A DNA stretch of 64,000 nt from Escherichia phage mistaenkt. Positions 17,414 through 41,101 of this stretch are shown piece after piece. The stretch's first letter is position 1; every line of letters starts with the position of its first letter. The notes beneath the pieces are model-generated. The model saw only the letters and a program-made list of their open reading frames with translations. It did not search any database and was not told where the DNA came from. The stretch lies in sequence record MN850587.1. One strand, written 5' to 3'. A program made the translations under genes and the position numbers.

Positions 17414-17457
17414 GTTTTAATCTCTCTCAAAGTGGGGCTTAAAAGCCCCTGATTAAT

Positions 17458-18339
17458 TTAATAGATGTTTGCTACAGTTACTTGACCGAAATGAGTCAGA
17501 CCACGGTCTTTCGCACTACCTAAAGAGTCTGTAGTGTAGATGTGTGAAATACCATTGTCAAGCAGGTTTTCAACACCTTTTGAGAAAATACCATGTGTTA
17601 CATACAGTTCAACTTTAGATGCTCCAGCTTCACGAAGATACTTGGCTGCTTCAATGAAGGTACGACCACCATCACAGATATCATCAATGATGAGTACAGT
17701 TTTACCAGTAAGGTCTACATCATCAAGCAGACGCATACCTGTAATCTCACCAGTCTTCAGGTCTCGAACCTTAGCCATTGTTACGTAAGGCTTATCAACC
17801 TCTTTAGCCGTCTCTGCAATCTTCTTAGCTGCTCCTGCATCTGGTGCTACCAGAAAATCAATGGTAGGCTCACTGGCATAGTGTGCTGCAACATCTTTTT
17901 GATGGATGTTCTGGAAGCATTTGAACAGGTTGTCTGCAACGTCACTGTGAGCATCCAGAGCACATACTGCATCAAAATCCATTGCATTGACCAGATTAGC
18001 AAACACTTTCAGTGCTGCTGCATCACCTTTAAACATGTGACGGTCATATCGAGCATTTGGCAGGTAAGCAAAGATGACAGTTTTCATAGTTGCTTTCTGA
18101 GGAATCATTTTGTCGATTGCCTCTTTTGCCAGAGCTAAAGCAAACAGAGTGTCTTTGTCGTAACCTTGTACAGTGAAGATGACGTTCTCAATCTGGGAAG
18201 CATTCTCTTCAGCATAGGTTACTAATTCTTCAGAGAAGTTACCACCAATTTCCCCAGACGGGAACTGGATAATGTTGAACTCTTCTTGGTGAGCACCTTT
18301 TTTCTGTGAGTGCAACAGTACGCTAATAATAGTTTTCAT
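17458..18339 (-). CDS. prs: Ribose-phosphate pyrophosphokinase family protein (Prs-like, 293 aa)
   Basis: PRPP-binding loop VLIIDDICDGGRT and THGIFS block, FPSGEI N-terminal block, VAPDAGA. Confidence 0.8.
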   Translation of the reverse strand: MKTIISVLLHSQKKGAHQEEFNIIQFPSGEIGGNFSEELVTYAEENASQIENVIFTVQGYDKDTLFALALAKEAIDKMIPQKATMKTVIFAYLPNARYDRHMFKGDAAALKVFANLVNAMDFDAVCALDAHSDVADNLFKCFQNIHQKDVAAHYASEPTIDFLVAPDAGAAKKIAETAKEVDKPYVTMAKVRDLKTGEITGMRLLDDVDLTGKTVLIIDDICDGGRTFIEAAKYLREAGASKVELYVTHGIFSKGVENLLDNGISHIYTTDSLGSAKDRGLTHFGQVTVANIY

Positions 18340-18351
18340 CTTTAATCTCTC

Positions 18352-18630
18352 TCAATCAAAAGTTACAAAGGTCACAGCCATAGCTGTTTTACATTTTTGT
18401 GGATTCACAATGTGATAGATGACTGAACAGTTTCCTGTTCCATCTGGTACTGGTTTTGTCCAAGTGCGTTCAACATTTGGTTCACCAAGTTCTTTGTAGA
18501 ATCCGTTTGTGTGATGGTCAATCATCTCAAGTGCTAATGAGTCTGGTACATGACCACGAATCATATACATCTCACAGCCATTGCCAGCATCACTTACAAG
18601 GTCTTTTATTTCCCAATCTGCTCTAGCCAC
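18352..18630 (-). CDS. Hypothetical protein (92 aa)
   Basis: ORF directly upstream of the Prs-like gene. Confidence 0.55.
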   Translation of the reverse strand: MARADWEIKDLVSDAGNGCEMYMIRGHVPDSLALEMIDHHTNGFYKELGEPNVERTWTKPVPDGTGNCSVIYHIVNPQKCKTAMAVTFVTFD

Positions 18631-19138
18631 GATAAGTTGCCTTATAAACAGTTTCGAATTTCAACAGGAGAGATATTGCCAGAACTGCATATTCTCTGTC
18701 AAGCATTGGTGGCATATTATTTCTTAGATACTCTTTTTGTTCTTCATAAGTCATCTTTGGAGTGTCTAAAATCTTCTCACCTTGCTTCTGGTTATCAATC
18801 TGAGTCTGGATAAACCAGTTTGCACAGTGGTGCTCACCACCTTTTGTAACTGGCTTGTGGTGGCCTAATGTAAAGGCTTGCTTGCCAGAATAACGACAAA
18901 GCTTGTTAAGAGTTGCAATAGTGTTCTTGACAACACAGTATTCATAGAGGTTATCAATTGTATAGTGAGGGTAGTATGCAAAGAGGGAACTGTCACGAAA
19001 CTTCCCACGATTCCAAAGAACCATGTGATTAGAGTTAGAAGGGTCATACTGATGGGAATCAATGAACTCTTGACGTTCATCAAAGTCAAGTCTTAGAACA
19101 GACATTGCAGCGGCACGTTTCAAGTTAGGTAAGTACAT
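18623..19138 (-). CDS. Hypothetical protein with HNH-like motif (171 aa)
   Basis: GHHKPVTKGGEHHCANW resembles the HH...GG...N core of HNH nucleases; weak. Confidence 0.4.
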   Translation of the reverse strand: MYLPNLKRAAAMSVLRLDFDERQEFIDSHQYDPSNSNHMVLWNRGKFRDSSLFAYYPHYTIDNLYEYCVVKNTIATLNKLCRYSGKQAFTLGHHKPVTKGGEHHCANWFIQTQIDNQKQGEKILDTPKMTYEEQKEYLRNNMPPMLDREYAVLAISLLLKFETVYKATYRG

Positions 19139-20949: not shown

Positions 20950-21105
20950 TTTAACTTTCCTCTTAATTCACAATAAAGGAGTCCTAAAAAGAACCCTAGT
21001 AAGACAGAACCGATGAATAAACCAATGATGCTCTCTGCCATAACCAACATCCAATAAAAAAAGGTGATGCAAGCCTATCAAGACTTACACCACCTTGTCA
21101 ACTAC

Positions 21106-23247
21106 TTACATAGATTTTCTGTCACGAATCTCAGCAATCTTTGCATCGTTCATTCTTGAAGTTCCTTTGATTTTAGTCCATCCAAGGTAACCACAAACAC
21201 GGTTAATGACTGAGATATCATGTGAATGACACTTAGGACACTCTTCAACGTCTGCATTAGGACGATGACCACAATTCTCACAGATTGCTAAGTCAAAGTT
21301 CACACCTTGATAGAACCCTTTGCCCATACCTCTTGAGACACAAGCTTTGATAGCTTTATGATTCTCTGGGTTAGCCAGACGTACATACTGAATGTGACCG
21401 CCATTACAGCTATGGAACAGAGGTTCTTCCAAGTCTTGCTTCTGATACGGAGTAATCTCTGCTGCAACGTTCATATGGAAGCTATTAGTGAAGTATTCTT
21501 TATCAGAAACATCTTTCACAACACCAAACATATTACGGAACTGCTTCAATTGCGTCCCACAAAGGCTCTCAGCAGGTGTACCGTAAAGGGCATACAAGAA
21601 GCCATCTTGCTCTTTAAAGTACGCCAGACGGTCATTCAGGTAGTCCAGAACTTGCTGTGCAATCACTTTCTGAGACTCATGCAGTCTACCTTCTCCAGCC
21701 AGTACAGAAAGCTCATCAAGTGCAGTTACGCCGAAAGAAGCTGTGAAGGACTTCACAGTACCCCAACCAATCTTATCAGTTGGCTTCTTATCCCCTTTGT
21801 AAAGGCCACCTTGTGTGAATGCCAGAGGGTTTGAACTTGCTGGCATGTTAGCAATCATCTCATAGCGTTTCTTATGGAAGCTACGAATCATCTCAAGGTA
21901 TTTGTCAAGTTCTTTCCAGAAGTCTAAACCGTTCTCTTTAGCATACTGATAAATCATTGGCAAGTTCAAAGAAACTGCACCAATGTTTGCACGACCAACG
22001 TAGAACTCTTCTCCGTTTTCGTCATAGTATGGAGACAGGAAAGCTCGACAACCCATCGGTGAAATTACCTTTCCAGAACGTTCAAACGCTTCTGCAACAG
22101 CACCATGACCAGATACACTCAAGAAGTCTGGGTACATTGCTCTAGAGCAACATTCAATAGCCTTGTTATACAGTCTTGCTTGGCAGATATCAAGAGCATA
22201 TCTTGTCTGGTCATGAATGTAGACCAGTTTAGGGAACACAACAGGCTTCTTATTCTTCCCTTGACCATTCATACGAACATCAAGGATTGTATCAGCAATC
22301 ATAAACTGGAGGCGGTTATCCTCGTTGTGCATATCAGGTTCCAGTAAACCGAATGTCAAAGTTGTGAATGCAAAGTCACCACGGCTACAAGGAACTGTGT
22401 TAAGCTTCATCTCAAGTGATTGAAAGCCTTGTGTAAGTTCAATTTGGAGTTGTTCCATCACGTAGTTGTAATGTTGGTCTTTAGGGATTCCATAAGCCTC
22501 TGCTTTCTCAGAGTGGTAGCGTAAAGACTTCTTAGCATACGGCACAAGAACCTTATCAATCTCTGGGATTGTGAAGCCACCAAATTGCTGTGCAGTTGCT
22601 GATAACACAACATCTCCAATGACCTGTAAAGCTGACAGAACAGACTTAGGTTCACAGTATTCTATACCGGACATTTCAAAGCCACCTTTTAGGACTTTAC
22701 CAATGTCAAACAGGCAACAGTTAATACCACCAAATACCAAATCTCTCAGGTCATGAATGTAGATGAAACCTGCTTCAATAGCTTCAAGTTCTTCTGGTGT
22801 CAAGTGATACTGCTTGAAGATTTCTTTAGTCAGGTAGCCACGAATGATAGAACCTTTTGTAGAGATTAAGCTACTGTCAAAGTTAGCATTCTCACGGTCA
22901 CCTAAGAAGAGGGTATCTTTGGTCTTCTGATAGAGTTCATCCCAATTCTGTGCAACCTCTTTACGATAGTTACGATAGGTTGAATAAGATTCATAAATCT
23001 CGTGATTAACTTCTGCTAAAGCCCCTTCAACAATGCTGTGAATGTCATCTACAGAAATCAGCAAAGTATTCTGGTTAGAAGCCTTTACAAGAATCCGCAT
23101 AAAAGCTGACTCAAGAGCATGGACAACCTCTAACGGGAGTTCTTTATAGCCAACTCGGTTAGCTGACTTTGTAACTGCTGCTAGGACTTTCTTAATATCT
23201 GGTTCTTCAAGTGAGCCATTCTTTTTAATAATTTGTACTTTGACCAT
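21106..23247 (-). CDS. nrdD: Anaerobic ribonucleoside-triphosphate reductase (class III)
   Basis: N-terminal ATP-cone-like VKVQIIKKNGSLE; C-terminal glycyl-radical motif RVCGYLG and Cys-rich zinc site; start moved from track 23349 to ATG 23247, which has an AAGGAG SD. Confidence 0.9.
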   Translation of the reverse strand: MVKVQIIKKNGSLEEPDIKKVLAAVTKSANRVGYKELPLEVVHALESAFMRILVKASNQNTLLISVDDIHSIVEGALAEVNHEIYESYSTYRNYRKEVAQNWDELYQKTKDTLFLGDRENANFDSSLISTKGSIIRGYLTKEIFKQYHLTPEELEAIEAGFIYIHDLRDLVFGGINCCLFDIGKVLKGGFEMSGIEYCEPKSVLSALQVIGDVVLSATAQQFGGFTIPEIDKVLVPYAKKSLRYHSEKAEAYGIPKDQHYNYVMEQLQIELTQGFQSLEMKLNTVPCSRGDFAFTTLTFGLLEPDMHNEDNRLQFMIADTILDVRMNGQGKNKKPVVFPKLVYIHDQTRYALDICQARLYNKAIECCSRAMYPDFLSVSGHGAVAEAFERSGKVISPMGCRAFLSPYYDENGEEFYVGRANIGAVSLNLPMIYQYAKENGLDFWKELDKYLEMIRSFHKKRYEMIANMPASSNPLAFTQGGLYKGDKKPTDKIGWGTVKSFTASFGVTALDELSVLAGEGRLHESQKVIAQQVLDYLNDRLAYFKEQDGFLYALYGTPAESLCGTQLKQFRNMFGVVKDVSDKEYFTNSFHMNVAAEITPYQKQDLEEPLFHSCNGGHIQYVRLANPENHKAIKACVSRGMGKGFYQGVNFDLAICENCGHRPNADVEECPKCHSHDISVINRVCGYLGWTKIKGTSRMNDAKIAEIRDRKSM

Positions 23248-27373: not shown

Positions 27374-27396
27374 AAAAAGGGTCTCCGAAGAGACCC
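27374..27396 (-). terminator. Rho-independent terminator with UUCG-type loop
   Basis: GGGTCTC-CGAA-GAGACCC followed on the minus strand by TTTTTCACC. Confidence 0.6.
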
Positions 27397-27740: not shown

Positions 27741-28065
27741 GATATTTATCCAAGTTTCGTTTCAGGTAAAGCCACCCATCATCAGTGCGCTCAACACCCA
27801 TGAACAGTGGAGCCGTTACAACCTTTCCAAACGTATTGCGATGTTGACAAATCTCATAAGAATACGTTTTCTCAATGTTTAGGCCATATTTGAAAAGCAC
27901 TGCTTTCAAGACCTGTTCATTATCCAGTAAAGTTTCTGGTGTCTCTCCATATTTTACTAACAGTGAATCATTCATAAACACTGTCATAGAGAGATTATAG
28001 TTTGAGAAATGGCTCTTTGGAGCCACCTCTTCAGTATTAATGTTCTGTGAATCCATTATAACCAA
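27733..28065 (-). CDS. Hypothetical protein (110 aa)
   Basis: ORF in operon. Confidence 0.55.
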   Translation of the reverse strand: MVIMDSQNINTEEVAPKSHFSNYNLSMTVFMNDSLLVKYGETPETLLDNEQVLKAVLFKYGLNIEKTYSYEICQHRNTFGKVVTAPLFMGVERTDDGWLYLKRNLDKYHV

Positions 28066-28792
28066 CCCCTTTTAACCAATTCTTCAGGTTATTTGCATCA
28101 TAGTTCAGTTTCGGGTATGAGGTCACATGGAACTTCTCACCGTCATAGTAAACAATATCTGCAAGCCATAATCCGTTTTCTCGGCAGAAGTCTTTGTCTG
28201 CTTTCGAACTGATTGGTCGAACTTCTGTGAAGTCACTCAATCCAAGGTCTTTCAAACTTCCTACAAGACCTTTACAGATAACGCATGTGTCAGATGTTAC
28301 CACGAACAATTCTTTGCTTTCAAGTTCCGCGATGAACTCTGCAAGCTGTACTTTAGGAAGATTAGACTGCTTCATAACCTTCTTATCAGACTCACGGATA
28401 ATGGCGTACCATTCTTTTCCGTCAATCGTTGAAGCACGTACACGACATTCATCACCAGTACGCTTTTCGATATCTGCGAGACGTTTCAAAGCTTCTTCGT
28501 AGTTATCAGTATACTTCAGGTTGTTATTCTCACAGACTGCTTTCATAGCTCCGTCATGGTCATGCTGTGAAAGGTAAATCAGTCCATCAAGAACATACTG
28601 TAAATCTGCCTGAGCATCAAGAGCCTCAATAGGGTCTTTTTCATCAACAGCTTTCAAAAGCTCTTTGGCTTCTTCTAACATGCAAAGTGCTTGACTACGC
28701 ATCGAAGACCAGTACTCAGGTGTATAAGGAGTCAACGGGGTCTTACCACAACGCTGATTCCAAGTTAGAACGGATTCTCTGGAATTAAACAT
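28037..28792 (-). CDS. Two-domain protein: all-alpha MazG-like N-terminal region plus thioredoxin-fold-like CxxC C-terminal region (tentative)
   Basis: N-terminal acidic helical pattern EEAKELLKAV...EALDAQADLQYV; C-terminal VVTSDTCVICKG. Confidence 0.4.
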   Translation of the reverse strand: MFNSRESVLTWNQRCGKTPLTPYTPEYWSSMRSQALCMLEEAKELLKAVDEKDPIEALDAQADLQYVLDGLIYLSQHDHDGAMKAVCENNNLKYTDNYEEALKRLADIEKRTGDECRVRASTIDGKEWYAIIRESDKKVMKQSNLPKVQLAEFIAELESKELFVVTSDTCVICKGLVGSLKDLGLSDFTEVRPISSKADKDFCRENGLWLADIVYYDGEKFHVTSYPKLNYDANNLKNWLKGVGYNGFTEH

Positions 28793-29001
28793 TAAACCTC
28801 CTGAAACAGTTTCTGCTGAGACTCAATATAATCCAGTCTGCCTTTCAGTTCAACACGTTTGTTAATCAGGTGCTGAATCTGGGACTCAAGAGCCTCCATT
28901 TCGGACTCCGTAGCTGCTTTAGCTTTGACAATTGCATCTTTCAGTGCTGCAATGTGGCTGTCAATTTTAGCTACGTGGTCATTCTTAATTTTGTTAAACA
29001 T
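28792..29001 (-). CDS. Small coiled-coil protein (69 aa)
   Basis: Heptad-like charged helix. Confidence 0.5.
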   Translation of the reverse strand: MFNKIKNDHVAKIDSHIAALKDAIVKAKAATESEMEALESQIQHLINKRVELKGRLDYIESQQKLFQEV

Positions 29002-29005
29002 AATC

Positions 29006-29506
29006 TTATTCTCTCTCGTTAAGTTTCATGATTTTATGGATTCTCTTCTCAGCATCTTCATAAGTCTCTTTGGTAAGAAACTTGATTGCTGCAATGTTTG
29101 CATTGTAGAAGAGTCGAAGCTTGGAGTCAATCCTTTTTGTCATGACGTCAAACTTATGTTGGAGGTTAGCTTCTCCGTAGACCAACCCACCTCGCGTATA
29201 ATAAGTTTGCACAATATAGAAGTCAAACTCTTTTTCACCGAAAGTTTCAATATCTTTCTTAATGTACTCAGAAGAGGTCTGGTAAACCATCCAGTCACTC
29301 TCTTTTGTCACAATCTTACGTCTGGCCTTTCCAGCTACTTTCTTCTTGGTGACATTGTTAAACTGCTTCTTACCAATGTAATACTGTCCAGTCTTTTTGC
29401 AGTACACTAAGTAAACGAAACCAAAATACTTAGCGGGGTCAATCTCCCCGCACAGTGAAATCCAATGCCCATATTCAGGGCAATTGCCAAAACCTTTAAT
29501 CTTCAT
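29006..29506 (-). CDS. GIY-YIG family endonuclease (putative homing endonuclease)
   Basis: FGFVYLVYCKKTGQYYIGKK matches the GIY...YIG motif; 166 aa; inserted between the exonuclease gene and downstream genes. Confidence 0.6.
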   Translation of the reverse strand: MKIKGFGNCPEYGHWISLCGEIDPAKYFGFVYLVYCKKTGQYYIGKKQFNNVTKKKVAGKARRKIVTKESDWMVYQTSSEYIKKDIETFGEKEFDFYIVQTYYTRGGLVYGEANLQHKFDVMTKRIDSKLRLFYNANIAAIKFLTKETYEDAEKRIHKIMKLNERE

Positions 29507-30536
29507 TCATAACAGGCTCCCAACCATATTTAGCAAATGTGAAGTCATCTTTCGGATTACGCTCTTGATAGGCAATCCAGAAGTGCTGGTGCATAAGTTC
29601 AAGAGGTGTTCTTGTGACCACTTGACCATCCCATGATTCATAAGTATATGACTCTTTCTTAGCGTAAAGTTCATAGATAGCATCAAGACACTCTTTGTAA
29701 GTCTCTTTACCTTCCAGAGCGTTCATTACAGCAACTTTCCCTGCACCCTTAAGGCCAAAGTAGTTATCTGCGTTGTCTCCTGCTACAGCTTGATAGCAGA
29801 GGAATTTGAAGCCTACACCAACAGTCTTTTTAGCTTTCGGCTTAGACTTGATAGGGCAATCCCAAATATTACCTACGTTACCGTCTGCAATGAAAATCAG
29901 AGGGGCTTTCTCGTAAGTCATATCAATACAGTAAGTTCCTTCCGCTTGGCGAAGGTCTTTATCAATACTCATAAGAGCAGCCTTCTTACCCATCTTCTCA
30001 GCTTTTGCAATAACAATGGAGTCAGCTTCAAAGCCACCTTTGAGAAGCTTAAACTCAGGTCGTGACAGAAGATACTCACGACAAGCAACTAAATGCGTAG
30101 GGGTTACTGATTCTTTACGGTTACCTTGATACTGGTGTTCAAGACCTTTAATGTCTTTGTGTTTATGTACACCTTTCTCAGTGAGGTATCCCATCCAAGT
30201 TCGCTCTTTACCAACAACTTTCAACCATTCCTGAAGAACTTGTTGAGTTGCCATAATAGCTTCTTTTTCACTCTTAGCTTCTTTCCAAGATTGTCTTTCC
30301 CATTCATCTTCATCGAATGCAAGACCAAGTTCCTCTGTTAGAACTCTCTGGTCAGATAGCCATTGATTAGCATCTTTAGCACTTTCAAAGGCATCAGACT
30401 CTTCAGCAGTGAGTTTATTCACATACTTGTACTTTGCTTTCTCAACGACACAGGCTCCCTTGTAAGCAATACTGTCAGAGTCAATAAAGACATGTGTCAC
30501 AGTATCTGGGAGTTTTGTTAACGTGTACTTTTCCAT
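29496..30536 (-). CDS. 5-prime to 3-prime exonuclease / flap endonuclease (FEN family)
   Basis: N-terminal VFIDSDSIAYKG and later SIDKDL, GVGFK blocks; track start 30548 is TTG; ATG at 30536 has a GGAG SD 7 nt upstream. Confidence 0.8.
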   Translation of the reverse strand: MEKYTLTKLPDTVTHVFIDSDSIAYKGACVVEKAKYKYVNKLTAEESDAFESAKDANQWLSDQRVLTEELGLAFDEDEWERQSWKEAKSEKEAIMATQQVLQEWLKVVGKERTWMGYLTEKGVHKHKDIKGLEHQYQGNRKESVTPTHLVACREYLLSRPEFKLLKGGFEADSIVIAKAEKMGKKAALMSIDKDLRQAEGTYCIDMTYEKAPLIFIADGNVGNIWDCPIKSKPKAKKTVGVGFKFLCYQAVAGDNADNYFGLKGAGKVAVMNALEGKETYKECLDAIYELYAKKESYTYESWDGQVVTRTPLELMHQHFWIAYQERNPKDDFTFAKYGWEPVMNED

Positions 30537-30551
30537 TTGTATCTCCAATAC

Positions 30552-30580
30552 GAAAAAGCCCCATACTAAGTACAGGGCTT
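30552..30580 (-). terminator. Hairpin terminator
   Basis: AGCCCC-loop-GGGGCT; minus strand followed by TTTTTCGTATTGGAGAT. Confidence 0.5.
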
Positions 30581-30598
30581 TGTAGTAACTACTGAGAA

Positions 30599-31450
30599 TT
30601 AATCTTCAGTATCGAAATCTTCTTCGTCGTCGTCATCTGGGTCTGGCATATCATCGTCGTCATCGTCAGAGTTAGTATCTTCAGAATCCTTCGCATCTTC
30701 TTCGGTGATTTCACCGTTATCTTCAACGCCATCCAGACCAAGCAGAGCCAGTTCATCTTCATCCAGTTCAGGCTCACCGTTACCACCTGTACCACCAGTG
30801 TACGGAACCAGAGTATCAATGATAAACTGTTCCTGAATCGGCTTCGTCAGAACGTTGCTTTCAAAAGTGTAGAAGTGAGTTGCAAGAATCACACTACCAA
30901 ATGAACCGTTGCCGACTGCGATATCTGGGTGAATAACATCATAAGTTTTGTCGTCATCGTGTTTGTCAGAATGTTGAGCCTTGATTTTCTTCATCGGCTG
31001 TTTAACTGCAACACGCTTACCGTTAACTTCTTCAATCAGCATAACAGGGAATGACTGTTTCGCTGTCCAGACTGCACCATCTTTATAAGCAGCAGCACGA
31101 CTTACTTTCAGAATGTGATAAGTGTCTGCTTCAAATGGTGGTTTGCAACCGAACTTCTCTTCAAAGTCATCTGCATCAACAGCTTCAGTTGTAACCTTAT
31201 CCCAACCATCAGGATTCTTTTTAGACTTGGTGAACTCTTTGAAGAGTTTGTTACCATCTTTTGCCAGAATTGAAACACTGTAGTTACAATCTTTGCCTGG
31301 GAATTTCTTATCAACTGATTTACCTTTTCCCGGACGTGGAATAGTATTCAGGTAGTAGAACCAAACATCTTTTAGCAAGTAACGCAGAGTCTGACGTTCA
31401 GTACCGTTGTATTTTTCTACCGGAGATTTCATTTTAACAACTTTAGACAT
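30599..31450 (-). CDS. Putative single-stranded DNA-binding protein with acidic C-terminal tail
   Basis: C-terminus DSEDTNSDDDDDDMPDPDDDDEEDFDTED; adjacent to primase-helicase; start moved to the ATG at 31450 (MSKVVKM), which has an RBS. Confidence 0.55.
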   Translation of the reverse strand: MSKVVKMKSPVEKYNGTERQTLRYLLKDVWFYYLNTIPRPGKGKSVDKKFPGKDCNYSVSILAKDGNKLFKEFTKSKKNPDGWDKVTTEAVDADDFEEKFGCKPPFEADTYHILKVSRAAAYKDGAVWTAKQSFPVMLIEEVNGKRVAVKQPMKKIKAQHSDKHDDDKTYDVIHPDIAVGNGSFGSVILATHFYTFESNVLTKPIQEQFIIDTLVPYTGGTGGNGEPELDEDELALLGLDGVEDNGEITEEDAKDSEDTNSDDDDDDMPDPDDDDEEDFDTED

Positions 31451-31535
31451 TCTTAAATCCTCTTTCTCAAAATTATTTCTTTCAAACTTGAAGGAGTACA
31501 ATCTTACAGACTTCATACTCCCTTGTCAAACACTT

Positions 31536-36398: not shown

Positions 36399-39098
36399 AT
36401 GGAAAACGTAGATTTTGAAAACTTGCACTTGGTAGGTGATACCGAAACTGATGGGTTACTCCTTGAGTTCACAAAAGCACACGTAATGGCATTTGCAGAT
36501 TACAAAGATGACAGTGACGAACCTGCTGTGTGGGTCTTCACTGATGAACCTATTCTTGGTCACAAATGCACTAAGTACATTAAAGGTGGTCTTCGTGAAG
36601 GTGTAGAGTTTGCTCTTAAGGCAAAACGTCTCTGCATTCATAACGGCCTTGGCTATGACTGGTGGGTGTTCAATCACATTGCACCGGACTTATGGAACTT
36701 TGATAATCCGAAGTGTAAACCTTGGGGAGACTTCTTTCAGGATTCTCTTATCCAGTCTCGTGTTCAGTGGATGGATAGACCTACACCGAAAGGTTACAAA
36801 GGTGCTCATGGTTTGGCTGCATGGGGTGCTCGTGTTGGTGTTCGTAAACCAGAGATTGAAGAGTGGGGTGTTTGGAATGCTGATATTCTGAACCGTGTTG
36901 TTGAGGATATTCGAATCAACGCCAAAACTAAACGTGCTCTTGATAACGAATACCTGAAGCTGAAGAAGTGTGGTGTAGACACTTATGAAACCTACATGCG
37001 AGCTAAAGAAACATCTTTCTGGATGAGTCAGCAAGCTATCAACGGTTGGAAAGCTGATATTGAACTTATGCAGTTCCATGTCAAAGAACTTGACAGAATG
37101 ACTGATGAATTAGCTGCTGAAGTTGAGCCTCATCTGCCACCGACTATCAAGACGAAAGGTAAAGTTACTGGTGAAGAGTTTGCAAGGGCTTGGAACGAGT
37201 ATGTTGAGACATTTGGTGAAGCAGATGGTTTGAAGCGTATCACTAAGTATCCAAAAACTAAGTTCCGTCAGCAGGTTCGCAATGGTGAGATGCAGACTTA
37301 CGCTATCAAACCTTTTGGTAAGCCAACTACCAAGATTTTCAACATTGAGAAGCGTAACTGCTACACTCCAACTAATACGGTTACTGGAGAAGAGTACAAA
37401 GAAGGTTTCGTGGCAATGAAAGATGCTCGTGCAGTTTGTAACGAGTTGAATGCTGCGATTGATAAGAAGTGCAAAGACTGGAAGCCAGTTAAAACTGTGA
37501 AGACTGTGAAGTACTACAACAATCACGTAGTAAATCACTTTGAACTTGAGTCAAGTCGTTACACAGGTTTGATTGATGCACCTTATACACCGATTGAGTT
37601 TGAAGTTTCACGTATGACTCAGGTTGCTGTTGTGAAGGATTATCTGAAAACTCTTGGCTGGATTCCTGATGACTGGAACTACAAGAAAGATTCTGATGGT
37701 CGTCCGGTGAAGGTTTGTCGCTTCAAAGACAACAAGAAGATGATTCGTAAACATCCTAAATGGCAAGAGATGGTGGAACGTTGCGGATTGAACTATGTTG
37801 AACATGAAGGTGTACAGTACATCGAACACAACTGGTCTGTGAAGAAGTACACAGATTTGCTTGAACCTTGCTTGATTCGTACTTCACCGAAACTAACTGA
37901 ATCATCTTACGATACGATTGAAGGTGAACTTGGACAGAAGATTGCGAAGTACTATACTTTAATGCACCGACGCAGAACTATCGAGAACTCAAAGGATGAC
38001 GAAAAAGGTTGGTTAAACCAGATTCGTCCAGATGGTCGTTTGAGTGCTGGTGCAATGGTGTTTGGTACTTCAACTGGACGTATGACACAATATGGAATTG
38101 TGAACGTACCTTCTGGGGCTGCTGTTTATGGTGAACCAATGAGGGCAGTCTGGATTTGTGAAGAGGGAACCAACGTAGTATCCGTTGATATGAACTCTGC
38201 ACAGCTTGTTTTACTGTGTAACTTTATGGGCGATAAAGAGTTCACCAAAGCGGTAACTCAAGGTAAAGAAGAGATTGAGTTTATCCGTCAGGAAGATGGC
38301 AGATATTACTGCAAACACTTTGACGAATACCTGAATCCAGAAGTTGATAAGTATCTACGTTATGACTCTGAAAACGACTTGTACGTAGTTTATTCAGGTA
38401 CTGATGCTCATACACTGAACAGCATCTACTTCAGCTTGAACGAAGAACAAGATATATTGACTTGTCGTATGACTCAGGATGAAAATCTTCTTCACGAAAT
38501 TAGTAAAGGTCGTAAGAAAGCTAAGAATGGTATCTATGCGTTACTGTTCGGTGCTGGTGATGAGAAGTTTGCTAAGACGATTAAAGCTGCGACTACTCAA
38601 GAAGGTGCATTAACTAAACAGACTTACTTTGTTCGTTTACCGAAGATTAAGAAACTGTTAGATGACTTGGAAGCTGACTTTAAAGCAACTAAGAAAGCAC
38701 TCGAAGAGGTATTTGGTAAGACTGCTGCAATTGCTAAAGGTGGTTTTGTCAAGGTTGCTGGAGCATGGTTGTGGTGTAAGTCTCCACACAAACTGTTGAA
38801 CTACTTGCTGATGGGTTCAGAAGCACAAGTTCAGAATGAAGCAATCAACCTTGCATGTCGTCGTATGATTGATGAAGGTTTGATGAAGTTGAATGGTCGT
38901 AAGCCAGCTATCGGTGCTCGTTTACTCTGTGCATATCACGATGAAACAAGTTGGGAATGTCCAGAGAGCATGACAGCAGAAGTTAAGGCTGTAACTGACT
39001 GGTACTACGGACAAGCTTCTAAGAACTTAGGGCTTCGTAAAGAAACTCTGGTAACAGGGACTGGTAAAGTTGGTAAGTCTTGGTATGAGGTGCATTGA
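36399..39098 (+). CDS. DNA polymerase, family A (T7-like), with 3-5 exonuclease domain
   Basis: Exo I motif DTETDG near the N-terminus; KKAKNGIYALLFG and HDE motifs in the polymerase domain; 899 aa. Confidence 0.9.
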   Translation: MENVDFENLHLVGDTETDGLLLEFTKAHVMAFADYKDDSDEPAVWVFTDEPILGHKCTKYIKGGLREGVEFALKAKRLCIHNGLGYDWWVFNHIAPDLWNFDNPKCKPWGDFFQDSLIQSRVQWMDRPTPKGYKGAHGLAAWGARVGVRKPEIEEWGVWNADILNRVVEDIRINAKTKRALDNEYLKLKKCGVDTYETYMRAKETSFWMSQQAINGWKADIELMQFHVKELDRMTDELAAEVEPHLPPTIKTKGKVTGEEFARAWNEYVETFGEADGLKRITKYPKTKFRQQVRNGEMQTYAIKPFGKPTTKIFNIEKRNCYTPTNTVTGEEYKEGFVAMKDARAVCNELNAAIDKKCKDWKPVKTVKTVKYYNNHVVNHFELESSRYTGLIDAPYTPIEFEVSRMTQVAVVKDYLKTLGWIPDDWNYKKDSDGRPVKVCRFKDNKKMIRKHPKWQEMVERCGLNYVEHEGVQYIEHNWSVKKYTDLLEPCLIRTSPKLTESSYDTIEGELGQKIAKYYTLMHRRRTIENSKDDEKGWLNQIRPDGRLSAGAMVFGTSTGRMTQYGIVNVPSGAAVYGEPMRAVWICEEGTNVVSVDMNSAQLVLLCNFMGDKEFTKAVTQGKEEIEFIRQEDGRYYCKHFDEYLNPEVDKYLRYDSENDLYVVYSGTDAHTLNSIYFSLNEEQDILTCRMTQDENLLHEISKGRKKAKNGIYALLFGAGDEKFAKTIKAATTQEGALTKQTYFVRLPKIKKLLDDLEADFKATKKALEEVFGKTAAIAKGGFVKVAGAWLWCKSPHKLLNYLLMGSEAQVQNEAINLACRRMIDEGLMKLNGRKPAIGARLLCAYHDETSWECPESMTAEVKAVTDWYYGQASKNLGLRKETLVTGTGKVGKSWYEVH

Positions 39099-39610
39099 TG
39101 CAAGATTGTGGTTTTACTCATGAGCAATTAAAATCATGGATTCACTACGACCCCTTAACAGGTGTCTTAACTTGGATTGGTAGACCTCCTAACAGTGGTA
39201 GGGTGGTTATAGGCAGTCAAGCTGGGTCAATCAAAAGGACAAAATCTGGTGTGTATCTTCATACACAGATACTAGGTTACAGGACAGGGAATCACCGTAT
39301 TGCTTGGTTCTGGATGACTGGAAAATGGCCTGATAAACATATTGACCATAAGGATGGAGATGGTCTAAACAATGCTTGGGAGAATCTTAGAGAAGCCACG
39401 AAAGAGCAGAACATGGCTAACAGGAGACAACCTAGAACATCAAAGAGTTTAAAAGGCACAAGTAGAAGCAAATCTGGAAAGTGGATTGCACAGATTAACC
39501 ATAATGGAAAGACTAACCATATTGGCACATACATGACCGAGCAAGAAGCCCACGAAGCTTACTGTGAAGCTGCTATAAAACTCCACGGAGATTTTGCAAA
39601 ACTTAGTTGA
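39098..39610 (+). mobile_element. HNH homing endonuclease with AP2-type DNA-binding domain
   Basis: HIDHKDGDGLNNAWENLREATKEQN (HNH core), then GKWIAQINHNGKTNHIGTYMTEQEAHEAYCEAA (AP2-like); ATG overlaps the polymerase stop (TGATG). Confidence 0.75.
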
Positions 39611-39662
39611 CAAGGTGCTCATGGAAGAGTACCTTATACTATATATTGTATAGGAGACTTGT

Positions 39663-39863
39663 ATGACTATTTCAGAAATTGAAGTTCAACTGCAATGTGC
39701 TGGATATTCTCAAAGTGAGATTGAGGCTATGTGCATCATCATTTGCAGTAGCCATAAGCACCTCAAGCTTTCTAATGAAAATCTTTTCAAGGTTGATATT
39801 TTTATCGCTGGGGGCAAGATTATCAAGGATAAGACAGGCTACCTTAAAGGTGAACGTCTATGA
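39663..39863 (+). CDS. Hypothetical protein (66 aa)
   Basis: ORF. Confidence 0.5.
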   Translation: MTISEIEVQLQCAGYSQSEIEAMCIIICSSHKHLKLSNENLFKVDIFIAGGKIIKDKTGYLKGERL

Positions 39864-40069
39864 GCCATCGTGGAAGAACTCATCTTGCCATGATGCAAGG
39901 GGCTTCAAAAGAGACTATCAAGAATCGGAAGAAAACTCTTTTTGACAGAATGAATAGACTCATTGATAATGCAAGTCTACCTAACTCTGAAAAGGTTTTC
40001 TTGAAAGGGAATCTGAAGAGTATTGCACAGGAACTTATTGATATTGAATTTTGGAGACACCAAAAATGA
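39860..40069 (+). CDS. Hypothetical basic protein (69 aa)
   Basis: ORF with overlapping stop-start. Confidence 0.5.
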   Translation: MSHRGRTHLAMMQGASKETIKNRKKTLFDRMNRLIDNASLPNSEKVFLKGNLKSIAQELIDIEFWRHQK

Positions 40070-40317
40070 GCAATAAAGAGCAAGAAGCTTTAGCAATCTT
40101 CAAGAGTGAAGACAAATCAATAGCTTTTGTCTCAGAGGCTTGGTGCAGAGATTTGGGGTATGATTGGTATCTCTTCTTATGCGCTAAGAAAGATGTTAAG
40201 CCAGTTGATGAAACCCGATTCAAAGAACTGTATAATGTCTGCCAAGATGGTTATGAAGAACATTACAAAGGTTCTTTGAATCCTGTAAATTCAAAAGCTT
40301 CAGATTTATTTTATTGA
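40066..40317 (+). CDS. Hypothetical protein (about 83 aa)
   Basis: ATG at 40066 after a GGAG SD; track start 40051 is TTG. Confidence 0.5.
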   Translation: MSNKEQEALAIFKSEDKSIAFVSEAWCRDLGYDWYLFLCAKKDVKPVDETRFKELYNVCQDGYEEHYKGSLNPVNSKASDLFY

Positions 40318-40327
40318 GAGGTTTAAA

Positions 40328-40573
40328 ATGTTAAAATTATTGATACCAGCTTTAGCAGTCCTACTGGTTGGGTGTAACCCTTCTTATGAGAATAAGGATG
40401 CTTCTTACAGACTTCCTCCAGAAATGCAAGACTGCAAGATTTATAAGCCTAATGGTGATGCCATTAGCAGGGATGTTATTGTAGTTCGCTGCCCAAATTC
40501 TCAGACGACAACTTCTTACAAGTATGGGAAGAATAGTCAGTCACACGCCACAGTTTTTGATGAGGGATATTGA
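40328..40573 (+). CDS. Small lipoprotein (81 aa)
   Basis: Signal peptide MLKLLIPALAVLLVGC with canonical lipobox LVGC; mature part about 65 aa with 2 Cys. Confidence 0.6.
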   Translation: MLKLLIPALAVLLVGCNPSYENKDASYRLPPEMQDCKIYKPNGDAISRDVIVVRCPNSQTTTSYKYGKNSQSHATVFDEGY

Positions 40574-40574
40574 T

Positions 40575-40781
40575 ATGCAGGTTCTGGTAAACTTTATCTA
40601 TAAGTATGAAAACATCTTCAGCACTATGACTGTAGCTCAACGCAATCCAGTTATTCCCCGAGAAGGGGAGACTGTTGAGATTAATGATTGGAACTACAGA
40701 GTTGAAGAGGTCAAGCATAAACTTAAAGATGGTTATGACCACCAAGTTGTAAATGTGTATTTAAAAGGTAAGTGGCAATGA
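40575..40781 (+). CDS. Hypothetical protein (about 68 aa)
   Basis: ATG at 40575 after a GAGGGA SD. Confidence 0.5.
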   Translation: MQVLVNFIYKYENIFSTMTVAQRNPVIPREGETVEINDWNYRVEEVKHKLKDGYDHQVVNVYLKGKWQ

Positions 40782-41020
40782 GTAGAGAAGACCAGTTAAT
40801 TGATATGCAAAATGACAAAAATGAGGCAATATCCATAATCCCAATATTGTGGGGGCATGACTGCACATATGGTAACTATCTGTGTGTTTGTGAAGACCGA
40901 AACATTGAACCCGTAAGCCGTAATGAGTATCAAAAACACTTAAAGGCTCTTGACAATTACTTCACAGATAATAAATGCTCTCAGATTTCAAGTGAGGTCT
41001 TGCATGAAGATTTTTATTAA
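40772..41020 (+). CDS. Hypothetical Cys-containing protein (82 aa)
   Basis: ORF. Confidence 0.5.
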   Translation: MAMSREDQLIDMQNDKNEAISIIPILWGHDCTYGNYLCVCEDRNIEPVSRNEYQKHLKALDNYFTDNKCSQISSEVLHEDFY

Positions 41021-41101
41021 AGTTATTGATGAAGATTTTGGAGGGTGCTCTTGGCACTCATTTTTCACAAAAGGTTGTCTAGCTTGTGAGGCACGTAATA
41101 A

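Follow-up and report, generated by a model that had tools for sequence, protein, structure and literature searches.

Is the small GIY-YIG gene that lies beside an exonuclease gene in Escherichia phage mistaenkt (sequence record MN850587.1) a selfish homing endonuclease, or does its product work for the phage? We examined this question in a stretch of 64,000 nucleotides (nt) of that genome, referred to here as the window, in which an open reading frame (ORF) of 166 amino acids (aa) runs on the minus strand from an ATG at 29506 to a TAA at 29006. The initial annotation of this locus, made from the sequence alone, took the gene to be an insertion in the replication gene block and a 'second, independent homing endonuclease'. 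We find instead that it is a vertically inherited, fixed core gene of the Felix O1-like phages (Ounavirinae) and is under strong purifying selection. The reading that we favour, with confidence evenly balanced between its holding and its failing, is that the gene encodes a domesticated, single-domain DNA-processing enzyme that is paired with the exonuclease, rather than a selfish homing endonuclease. The gene and the elements of its product on which the argument draws are the following.

29006–29506, minus strand: gene for the 166-aa single-domain Seg-type GIY-YIG nuclease (orthologues: CHB7 gp25, SUSP1 AVU07_agp056, Felix O1 ORF259 and Bas63 bas63_0057)
29366–29422, minus strand: GIY and YIG motifs, residues 29–47, GFVYLVYCKKTGQYYIGKK, strands β1 and β2 (from the translation, conservation and the structural model)
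29300–29359, minus strand: Lys/Arg-rich β-hairpin insertion, residues 50–69, NNVTKKKVAGKARRKIVTKE (from the translation; strands 50–55 and 64–69; basic consensus)
29102–29173, minus strand: helix of the catalytic Glu (E112) through the conserved Asn (N135) (from the translation; both residues in 149 of 149 relatives; helix 105–118)

The nuclease domain that the initial annotation had recognized from its motif stood up well. Residues 22–138 match the SegE_GIY-YIG profile PF19835 over profile positions 11–123 of 123, at 95 bits (E = 5e-27) against a gathering cut-off of 25 bits, and an exhaustive search recovered relatives in 1289 representative clusters. G29-F30-V31-Y32 and Y43-I44-G45 constitute the GIY and YIG elements. 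When conservation was scored per column in an alignment of 149 relatives (28–60% identity), Y32, Y43, G45, W72, Y75, S78, E112 and N135 were invariant, and W15, G29, F30, K47, G90, F94 and L122 were nearly so. The fold was assigned from an AlphaFold2 model, because neither single-sequence nor profile searches gave a significant match in solved PDB structures. The model, built with 87 sequences, has a mean predicted local distance difference test score (pLDDT) of 91.6 and a predicted template modelling score of 0.86; it shows the α/β fold of GIY-YIG domains, with strands at residues 29–36 and 41–48 and a helix at residues 105–118, and the catalytic domain of I-TevI ranks first among its structural matches (Foldseek probability 0.99). 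Fold prediction and conservation of the motif, the two tests that had been proposed for the annotation, thus agree on a predicted GIY-YIG nuclease fold and on motif residues that are invariant in homologues. Searches of NCBIfam and PADLOC returned zero matches for the protein. The basic β-hairpin is common to the PF19835 core, falls in a gap in alignments to I-TevI and T4 SegE, and is probably a DNA-contacting element. Judged from sequence and model, the protein is a GIY-YIG nuclease domain with an intact fold, and it retains every residue of the metal site and of catalysis that is typical of Seg-type enzymes. The PF19835 score, the 1289 clusters of relatives and the low ratio of non-synonymous to synonymous substitution rates (dN/dS, 0.03–0.05) show that the ORF is a genuine gene and not a chance frame.

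The protein consists of the catalytic domain and little else. It stops 18 residues past the domain, with a single helix at residues 151–164, and PF19835 is the only domain detected; we found no separate DNA-binding or targeting module of the NUMOD, helix–turn–helix (HTH) or zinc-finger type. The lengths of the relatives are bimodal, with domain-only proteins of 130–190 aa and proteins of 230–390 aa that carry C-terminal modules, which are NUMOD3 (38 of the 149), an I-HmuI-type NUMOD or an HTH. A NUMOD or HTH tail at the C terminus is the classic targeting module of homing enzymes. Short and long forms are interleaved in a neighbour-joining tree of 278 domain sequences (drawn without support values), which suggests that tails have been gained or lost repeatedly among these relatives.

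The distribution of the gene is that of a core gene. The phage is a Suspvirus relative within the Felix O1-like group: over 5 kb around the gene, identity is 98% with Enterobacteria phage CHB7, about 97% with Escherichia phages SUSP1 and SUSP2 (Ounavirinae, Suspvirus) and about 81% with Mooglevirus-type phages (Citrobacter phage Moogle) and related Shigella and Citrobacter phages, and the whole window aligns with SUSP1 in blocks of 73% to 96% identity. The protein itself is 99.4% identical to CHB7 gp25 and SUSP1 AVU07_agp056 and 84–86% identical to Felix O1 ORF259 and Bas63 bas63_0057 (86% for Bas63). Counts made by tblastn against 50,697 phage records are as follows; those given per genus for the GIY-YIG gene cover all matches and may include a few phages from outside the Ounavirinae.

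GIY-YIG gene: 297 records at 60% identity or more; Salmonella 80, Erwinia 29, Shigella 23, Escherichia 122
Exonuclease gene: 303 records; Salmonella 80, Erwinia 29, Shigella 23, Escherichia 119
MazG gene: 301 records; Salmonella 80, Erwinia 29, Shigella 23, Escherichia 119

At every locus that we inspected (CHB7, Felix O1, phiEa104, Bas63, SUSP1, EC6 and an uncultured 90-kb relative) the gene occupies the identical slot, and the synteny is shared by Suspvirus, Felixounavirus, Kolesnikvirus and the uncultured relative. No clean gene-less allele occurs among these loci, so that sporadic presence and absence is not the pattern seen. The copy in EC6 (L024, 1561–2062) is annotated as two ORFs owing to one extra base after a run of six A residues; because the rest of that copy, about 95% identical to Felix O1, is free of other lesions, the split is likely to be a sequencing error.

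Selection and descent agree with this distribution. In unsaturated comparisons, dN/dS is 0.03–0.05 for the GIY-YIG gene, 0.07–0.16 for the exonuclease gene and 0.03–0.10 for the MazG gene, and across genera, where synonymous sites are saturated, the GIY-YIG protein is still 84% identical. Identity to the proteins of Erwinia phage phiEa104 is 60–62% for GIY-YIG, 54–55% for the exonuclease and 37–39% for MazG. Across genera the gene has diverged in step with the core genes on either side of it, which indicates vertical descent rather than decoupled evolution. The description of the gene as inserted is therefore to be dropped, because it holds the same position in all of the related genera examined; and its designation as a second, independent homing endonuclease is not supported, given the lack of a targeting domain, the near-universal presence in Ounavirinae, the purifying selection and the linkage to an exonuclease.

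That linkage begins in the window itself.

29496–30548, minus strand: FEN/T7 gp6-like 5′–3′ exonuclease gene, the upstream partner (phrog_107 exonuclease, E = 8e-63; weak Pfam 5_3_exonuc matches)
29496–29506, minus strand: overlap of the exonuclease stop with the GIY-YIG start, 11 nt, ATGAAGATTAA (from the sequence and from a junction alignment with Bas63, CHB7 and Felix O1)

The ATG of the GIY-YIG gene sits within the final codons of the exonuclease ORF, on the same strand, with a GGAG-like motif some 10 nt upstream; the overlap of stop and start implies that translation of the GIY-YIG gene is coupled to that of the exonuclease gene. The initial annotation was correct about the adjacency, the gene being downstream of the exonuclease on the minus strand, but it placed a 10-nt overlap at the exonuclease start, whereas the overlap is 11 nt long and at the exonuclease stop, the 3′ end. 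Orthologues of the exonuclease in relatives are annotated as exodeoxyribonuclease. As called mechanically, the exonuclease ORF begins at a TTG (MEIQMEKYTL...); because the annotated orthologues, of 346–348 aa, begin at an internal ATG (MEKYTL...), the true start is probably this ATG, four codons in, at 30536.

The arrangement recurs well beyond the Ounavirinae. We examined the neighbourhoods of the gene on contigs that encode its closest non-Ounavirinae relatives (44–54% identity).

L018 (a 90-kb phage): GIY-YIG protein of 161 aa; FEN-type exonuclease gene directly upstream; ribonucleotide reductase (RNR) gene downstream
L021: GIY-YIG protein of 129 aa, its gene 40 nt downstream of a FEN-type exonuclease gene; MazG and RNR genes further on
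L013 and L014: GIY-YIG protein of 132 aa; upstream gene for a Cas4-domain PD-(D/E)XK exonuclease (phrog_1990, E = 7e-42), its stop overlapped by 8 nt; DNA polymerase A gene upstream; metallophosphoesterase, MazG and RNR genes downstream
L015–L017: GIY-YIG protein of 131 aa; upstream gene for a Cas4-domain PD-(D/E)XK exonuclease (phrog_1990, E = 2e-47), its stop overlapped by 20 nt; genes for a gp2.5-like single-stranded DNA-binding protein (SSB) and DNA polymerase A upstream; metallophosphoesterase, MazG and RNR genes downstream
L022: GIY-YIG protein of 158 aa; no exonuclease neighbour; just upstream of a DNA polymerase A gene

In five of the six lineages examined among the closest relatives (44–99% identity), a short GIY-YIG gene directly follows a 5′–3′ exonuclease gene, and a MazG/PRA-PH gene lies downstream in distant phages as well. 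The Cas4-type exonuclease of L013–L017 is not homologous to the FEN-type enzyme of Ounavirinae, L018 and L021. The order of exonuclease and then GIY-YIG is a mark of the subgroup that this gene falls into; it has been kept even through a swap of the exonuclease, and it is the strongest functional hint that we found. This conserved adjacency points to a functional exonuclease–endonuclease pair.

A Cas4-type exonuclease gene and a short PF19835 gene, joined by a stop/start overlap, also form a recurrent module in uncultured phages that have DNA polymerase A and Toprim–DnaB replisomes, and this module may merit study of its own. A metallophosphoesterase gene comes directly after it in L015–L017; in L013 this gene lies beyond two small ORFs, about 650 bp further downstream.

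L013, 5178–6399: Cas4-type exonuclease and short PF19835 module
L015, 3323–4547: Cas4-type exonuclease and short PF19835 module

On the reading that we favour, the product of the gene would be a working Mg2+-dependent DNA endonuclease with little sequence specificity, which would hold DNA through its basic β-hairpin and would be guided in its cutting by DNA structure or a partner. Its substrates would be branched, nicked or damaged DNA, among them replication and recombination intermediates and the branches of concatemers; by nicking or cutting these it would make the 5′ ends that the exonuclease resects. The enzyme would most likely have arisen from a Seg-like homing endonuclease through loss of the DNA-binding tail and domestication. 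Its function would be accessory in laboratory conditions. No other junction-resolving or general endonuclease was recognizable in a Pfam scan (E ≤ 0.001) of 53 greedily called small ORFs in the non-structural 47 kb of the window; this lack of a match is weak evidence.

Several observations weigh against a domesticated, exonuclease-paired enzyme. The Arg that is canonical in the active sites of I-TevI and UvrC (R27 and R39) has no alignable counterpart; in place of the helix that carries it are the basic β-hairpin and a loop with the invariant W72, Y75 and S78, and the near-invariant K47 could substitute for it. T4 SegE has the same Arg-less arrangement, which makes this a trait of the subfamily and no sign of inactivity; even with the loss shared among Seg enzymes, nuclease activity is predicted and not proven. 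The candidate substrate and partner are suggested by gene order only. One close lineage, L022, has no exonuclease neighbour, and the more distant short homologues (about 30–37% identity) occur in other settings: those of cyanomyoviruses are downstream of nrdA–nrdB, and those of T4-like contigs and Stenotrophomonas phage Mendera are isolated, oppositely oriented genes, a placement that resembles that of homing endonucleases. In the neighbour-joining tree, exonuclease-linked members do not all group together, and the Cas4-linked short forms do not fall beside the Ounavirinae clade. Moreover, in a transcriptome-wide CRISPRi-ART screen of SUSP1, the orthologue AVU07_agp056 (7 guides) had a fitness of 0.50 (p = 0.48) and was scored 'Not Fit' (PMC11879866, supplementary file 16). 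In the same screen the exonuclease gene agp055 (1.87, p = 0.005), the gene upstream of it, agp054 (2.8, p = 3e-7), and nrdA were scored 'Fit' (PMC11879866). Such a screen ought to pick up an essential resolvase, yet the primase/helicase was also 'Not Fit', which indicates that false negatives are common, and the authors acknowledge false negatives (PMC11879866). At most, the gene would seem to be non-essential in the laboratory strain.

A broader form of the same idea is that a domesticated Seg-type domain serves as the dedicated partner of a 5′–3′ exonuclease, in debranching, junction cutting or end creation, across phages with T7-type replisomes. We regard this generalization as unlikely. 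If true, a partnership that is present in Ounavirinae and in uncultured lineages and was kept through the swap to a Cas4-type exonuclease would amount to an unrecognized class of phage nuclease for recombination and replication.

Of the explanations that compete with a domesticated partner of the exonuclease, the one that survives best is degradation of host DNA in the manner of T4 endonuclease II (EndoII, the product of denA), although we hold it to be quite unlikely. The GIY-YIG protein would nick host DNA and the exonuclease would digest it to deoxynucleoside monophosphates (dNMPs) that feed MazG, RNR and dNMP kinase, much as happens with T4 EndoII and with T7 gp3 and gp6. Like EndoII, the protein is a stand-alone GIY-YIG domain; its gene lies within a block with the genes for MazG, NrdA/B and dNMP kinase; the exonuclease partner is conserved; and the position of the short cyanophage homologues, after nrdA–nrdB, is where T4 has denA. 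However, SUSP1 and SUSP2, which carry the gene and are about 97% identical to the window in this region, are 'superspreaders': the plasmids that they release are physically intact and transformable, whereas T4, which has EndoII, destroys plasmids. Keen et al. put the release down to missing hydrolytic endonucleases (PMC5241400). Such release argues against a bulk degrader of unmodified or host DNA. Nor did we find a DNA-modification gene that could protect the phage genome, either in the SUSP1 annotation or in the Pfam scan of the 53 small window ORFs. Homology to T4 DenA was considered and rejected, because there is no specific similarity (hhalign probability 0.4%), and the protein does not belong to the EndoII group.

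Could the enzyme instead be a conditional weapon, which would cut the DNA of co-infecting phages or plasmids or the nucleic acids of host defences and would be dispensable in laboratory K-12? Strong purifying selection together with the absence of a knockdown effect on fitness in the laboratory strain would fit such a role, as would the precedent of Bas63 gp77, another small nuclease-like Felixounavirus gene, which counters retron Ec67 (PMC11482910). We consider this distinctly improbable, however. Anti-defence genes are usually variable, accessory genes of hypervariable regions, whereas the GIY-YIG gene is universal and part of a replication operon with the exonuclease; PADLOC gave no match and no other defence-related family was found; and Bas63 gp77 is not related to the GIY-YIG protein.

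The window has its own counterpart of gp77, an ORF at 18623–19138 (minus strand) that is a 79%-identical orthologue. In the PhageMaP preprint that reported its activity against retron Ec67, the Felixounavirus protein is described as containing a GIY-YIG domain (PMC11482910). Neither Pfam nor PHROGs revealed a GIY-YIG domain in ORF 18623–19138, which has only a weak HNH-like match (phrog_2214, E = 1e-4) and an HHKPVTKGGEHHCANW motif. We rejected the possibility that gp77 is the gene discussed here, as it has no similarity to the GIY-YIG ORF, the Bas63 orthologue of which is bas63_0057.

Very unlikely, in our judgement, is the original proposal of an active, free-standing homing endonuclease, inserted between the exonuclease and the downstream genes and cutting cognate sites in phages that lack it. 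It has the family behind it, in which long proteins that end in NUMOD3 or HTH modules are numerous and which includes T4 SegE, a proven homing enzyme; distant short members do occupy typical homing-endonuclease positions, this gene does lie between conserved genes and many GenBank records call it 'GIY-YIG homing endonuclease'. Yet three marks of homing genes are missing, namely a targeting domain, sporadic distribution (per genus, the gene is counted as often as its flanking genes) and evolution decoupled from the neighbours, and the coupling to an exonuclease is conserved in distant phages. The genuine HNH homing genes of this group, by comparison, show presence/absence polymorphism.

L001, 4004–4504; L002, 3477–4001; L024, 1073–1564: HNH(-AP2) insertions at the exonuclease/GIY-YIG junction
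29507–29530: empty site of this HNH insertion in the window
About 21105–21133 and about 17427–17465: window positions of the two indels at which SUSP1 agp067 and agp076 are absent
39095–39610, plus strand: gene for a 171-aa homing-type endonuclease with HNH_3 and AP2 domains, beside the DNA polymerase gene

CHB7, Felix O1 and EC6 each carry an HNH(-AP2) gene, roughly 500 bp long, precisely between the 3′ end of the exonuclease gene and the start of the GIY-YIG gene, where it recreates an overlapping stop and start with the latter; the site is empty in the window, SUSP1 and Bas63. Two SUSP1 genes, agp067 (a 'homing endonuclease' after nrdD) and agp076 (an HNH gene between those for PRPP synthetase and NAMPT), are absent from the window as clean indels of about 500 bp each. 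The HNH–AP2 gene at 39095–39610, is probably the 'first' homing endonuclease that the initial annotation had in mind; the stretch around it (39184–41101) has no alignment to SUSP1. Mobile endonuclease genes are thus polymorphic within the group, whereas the GIY-YIG gene is not.

That the protein is a catalytically dead GIY-YIG fold, kept for a structural, DNA-binding or regulatory role, is suggested by the non-alignable active-site Arg and the absence of a knockdown phenotype but is almost certainly wrong, given that the Tyr, the Tyr-x-Gly, the Glu and the Asn are invariant over 149 diverged relatives, long homing-type members included.

The genes around the pair complete the picture of the locus.

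30599–31516, minus strand: gene upstream of that for the exonuclease; its protein has a long acidic tail at the C terminus (phrog_3877 matches residues 23–305)
30555–30581, minus strand: terminator-like hairpin upstream of the exonuclease gene (consensus scan only)
28792–29001, minus strand: gene for a 69-aa coiled-coil-like protein, 4 nt downstream of the GIY-YIG gene and part of its operon (phrog_4442; position kept in relatives)
28037–28792, minus strand: gene for a MazG-like nucleotide pyrophosphohydrolase (Pfam PRA-PH; phrog_2144), a conserved downstream neighbour
27379–27396, minus strand: terminator-like hairpin after the gene for a 111-aa protein (consensus scan only)

Downstream of the GIY-YIG gene, the 69-aa gene, the MazG-like gene and two small genes follow almost without gaps, and then come a terminator-like hairpin and nrdA. 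The arrangement resembles a single, tightly packed operon devoted to replication, recombination and nucleotide metabolism, and the two hairpins may be the 5′ and 3′ boundaries of an exonuclease–GIY-YIG–MazG transcription unit; promoter-like sites in our scan were no more frequent than in shuffled sequence. The upstream ORF of 305 aa, which probably begins at 31450 to give 283 aa, has a long C-terminal tail rich in Asp and Glu and received no family assignment. By position it could be a candidate single-stranded DNA-binding protein, which is a guess: a gp2.5-like SSB fills its slot in L015, but searches of PDB and PHROG found no sequence link to gp2.5, and a single-sequence AlphaFold2 model was unusable (pLDDT 37).

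The names that the gene bears in public records conflict: in some it is a 'GIY-YIG homing endonuclease', in others an 'NAD synthetase'. The latter name comes from phrog_447, is supported by none of the domain searches that we made and also appears on about 390 cyanophage records. In Syn19 the annotated coding sequence is only 78 bp long, whereas tblastn aligns about 345 bp there.

phrog_447; RefSeq records such as NC_028808.2 agp056; L005, 3974–4414; L010, 3807–3884: PF19835 proteins labelled 'NAD synthetase'

A study of cyanophage transcriptomes counted a gene with the 'NAD synthetase' label as an auxiliary metabolic gene of photosynthetic electron transport (PMC7238727); going by the label on the cyanophage records that we inspected, that gene is probably a member of this PF19835 family. 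The gene, its domain and its fold are already in databases, but we did not find a description of its domain-only, fixed and exonuclease-linked status or of the misnomer. The finding overturns nothing. It replaces both of the conflicting labels, which stand in hundreds of public phage genomes, with a fixed, single-domain nuclease tied to an exonuclease; it offers a clean example of the probable domestication of a selfish nuclease; and it gives the Felix O1-like phages, which include agents of Salmonella and E. coli biocontrol and plasmid 'superspreaders', a candidate DNA-processing endonuclease that can be tested. Its interest would grow if the partnership with the exonuclease and a role in debranching or end creation were demonstrated.

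Among known systems, the nearest are the other members of PF19835, with which the protein shares the N-terminal GHW strand, the GIY and YIG strands, the basic hairpin, the W-x-x-Y-x-x-S-S motif, the catalytic Glu and the Asn. It differs from the long members in having no NUMOD3 or HTH tail and in being fixed in its lineage rather than sporadic. T4 SegE, a proven nuclease that likewise lacks the I-TevI-type Arg, is a peripheral member (36 bits) without the basic hairpin, and its BLASTP match to the GIY-YIG protein has an E value of 0.07. The catalytic domain of I-TevI (PDB 1LN0 and 1MK0) is about 13% identical, and the helix that bears its Arg27 is replaced here by the Lys/Arg-rich β-hairpin; I-TevI is moreover intron-encoded and mobile and has a linker, a zinc finger and an HTH DNA-binding domain, none of which applies to the GIY-YIG protein. 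To the structure-specific GIY-YIG nucleases Slx1 and UvrC there is no specific sequence relation, and the protein lacks their RING and UvrB-binding domains. T4 endonuclease II (DenA, PDB 2WSH) is similar in organization, as both are small, stand-alone phage GIY-YIG nucleases that have no separate DNA-binding domain, are encoded beside nucleotide-metabolism genes and, on the reading that we favour, serve the phage itself rather than homing. In T7, the fold of endonuclease I is unrelated to GIY-YIG. The likeness to the T7 set of endonuclease I (gene 3), gene 6 exonuclease and gp2.5 is a functional analogy only, in which a small endonuclease is linked to a 5′–3′ exonuclease and an SSB in a T7-type primase–helicase module, and by this analogy the GIY-YIG protein is predicted to act, as endonuclease I does, on branched DNA and to provide 5′ ends for its exonuclease.

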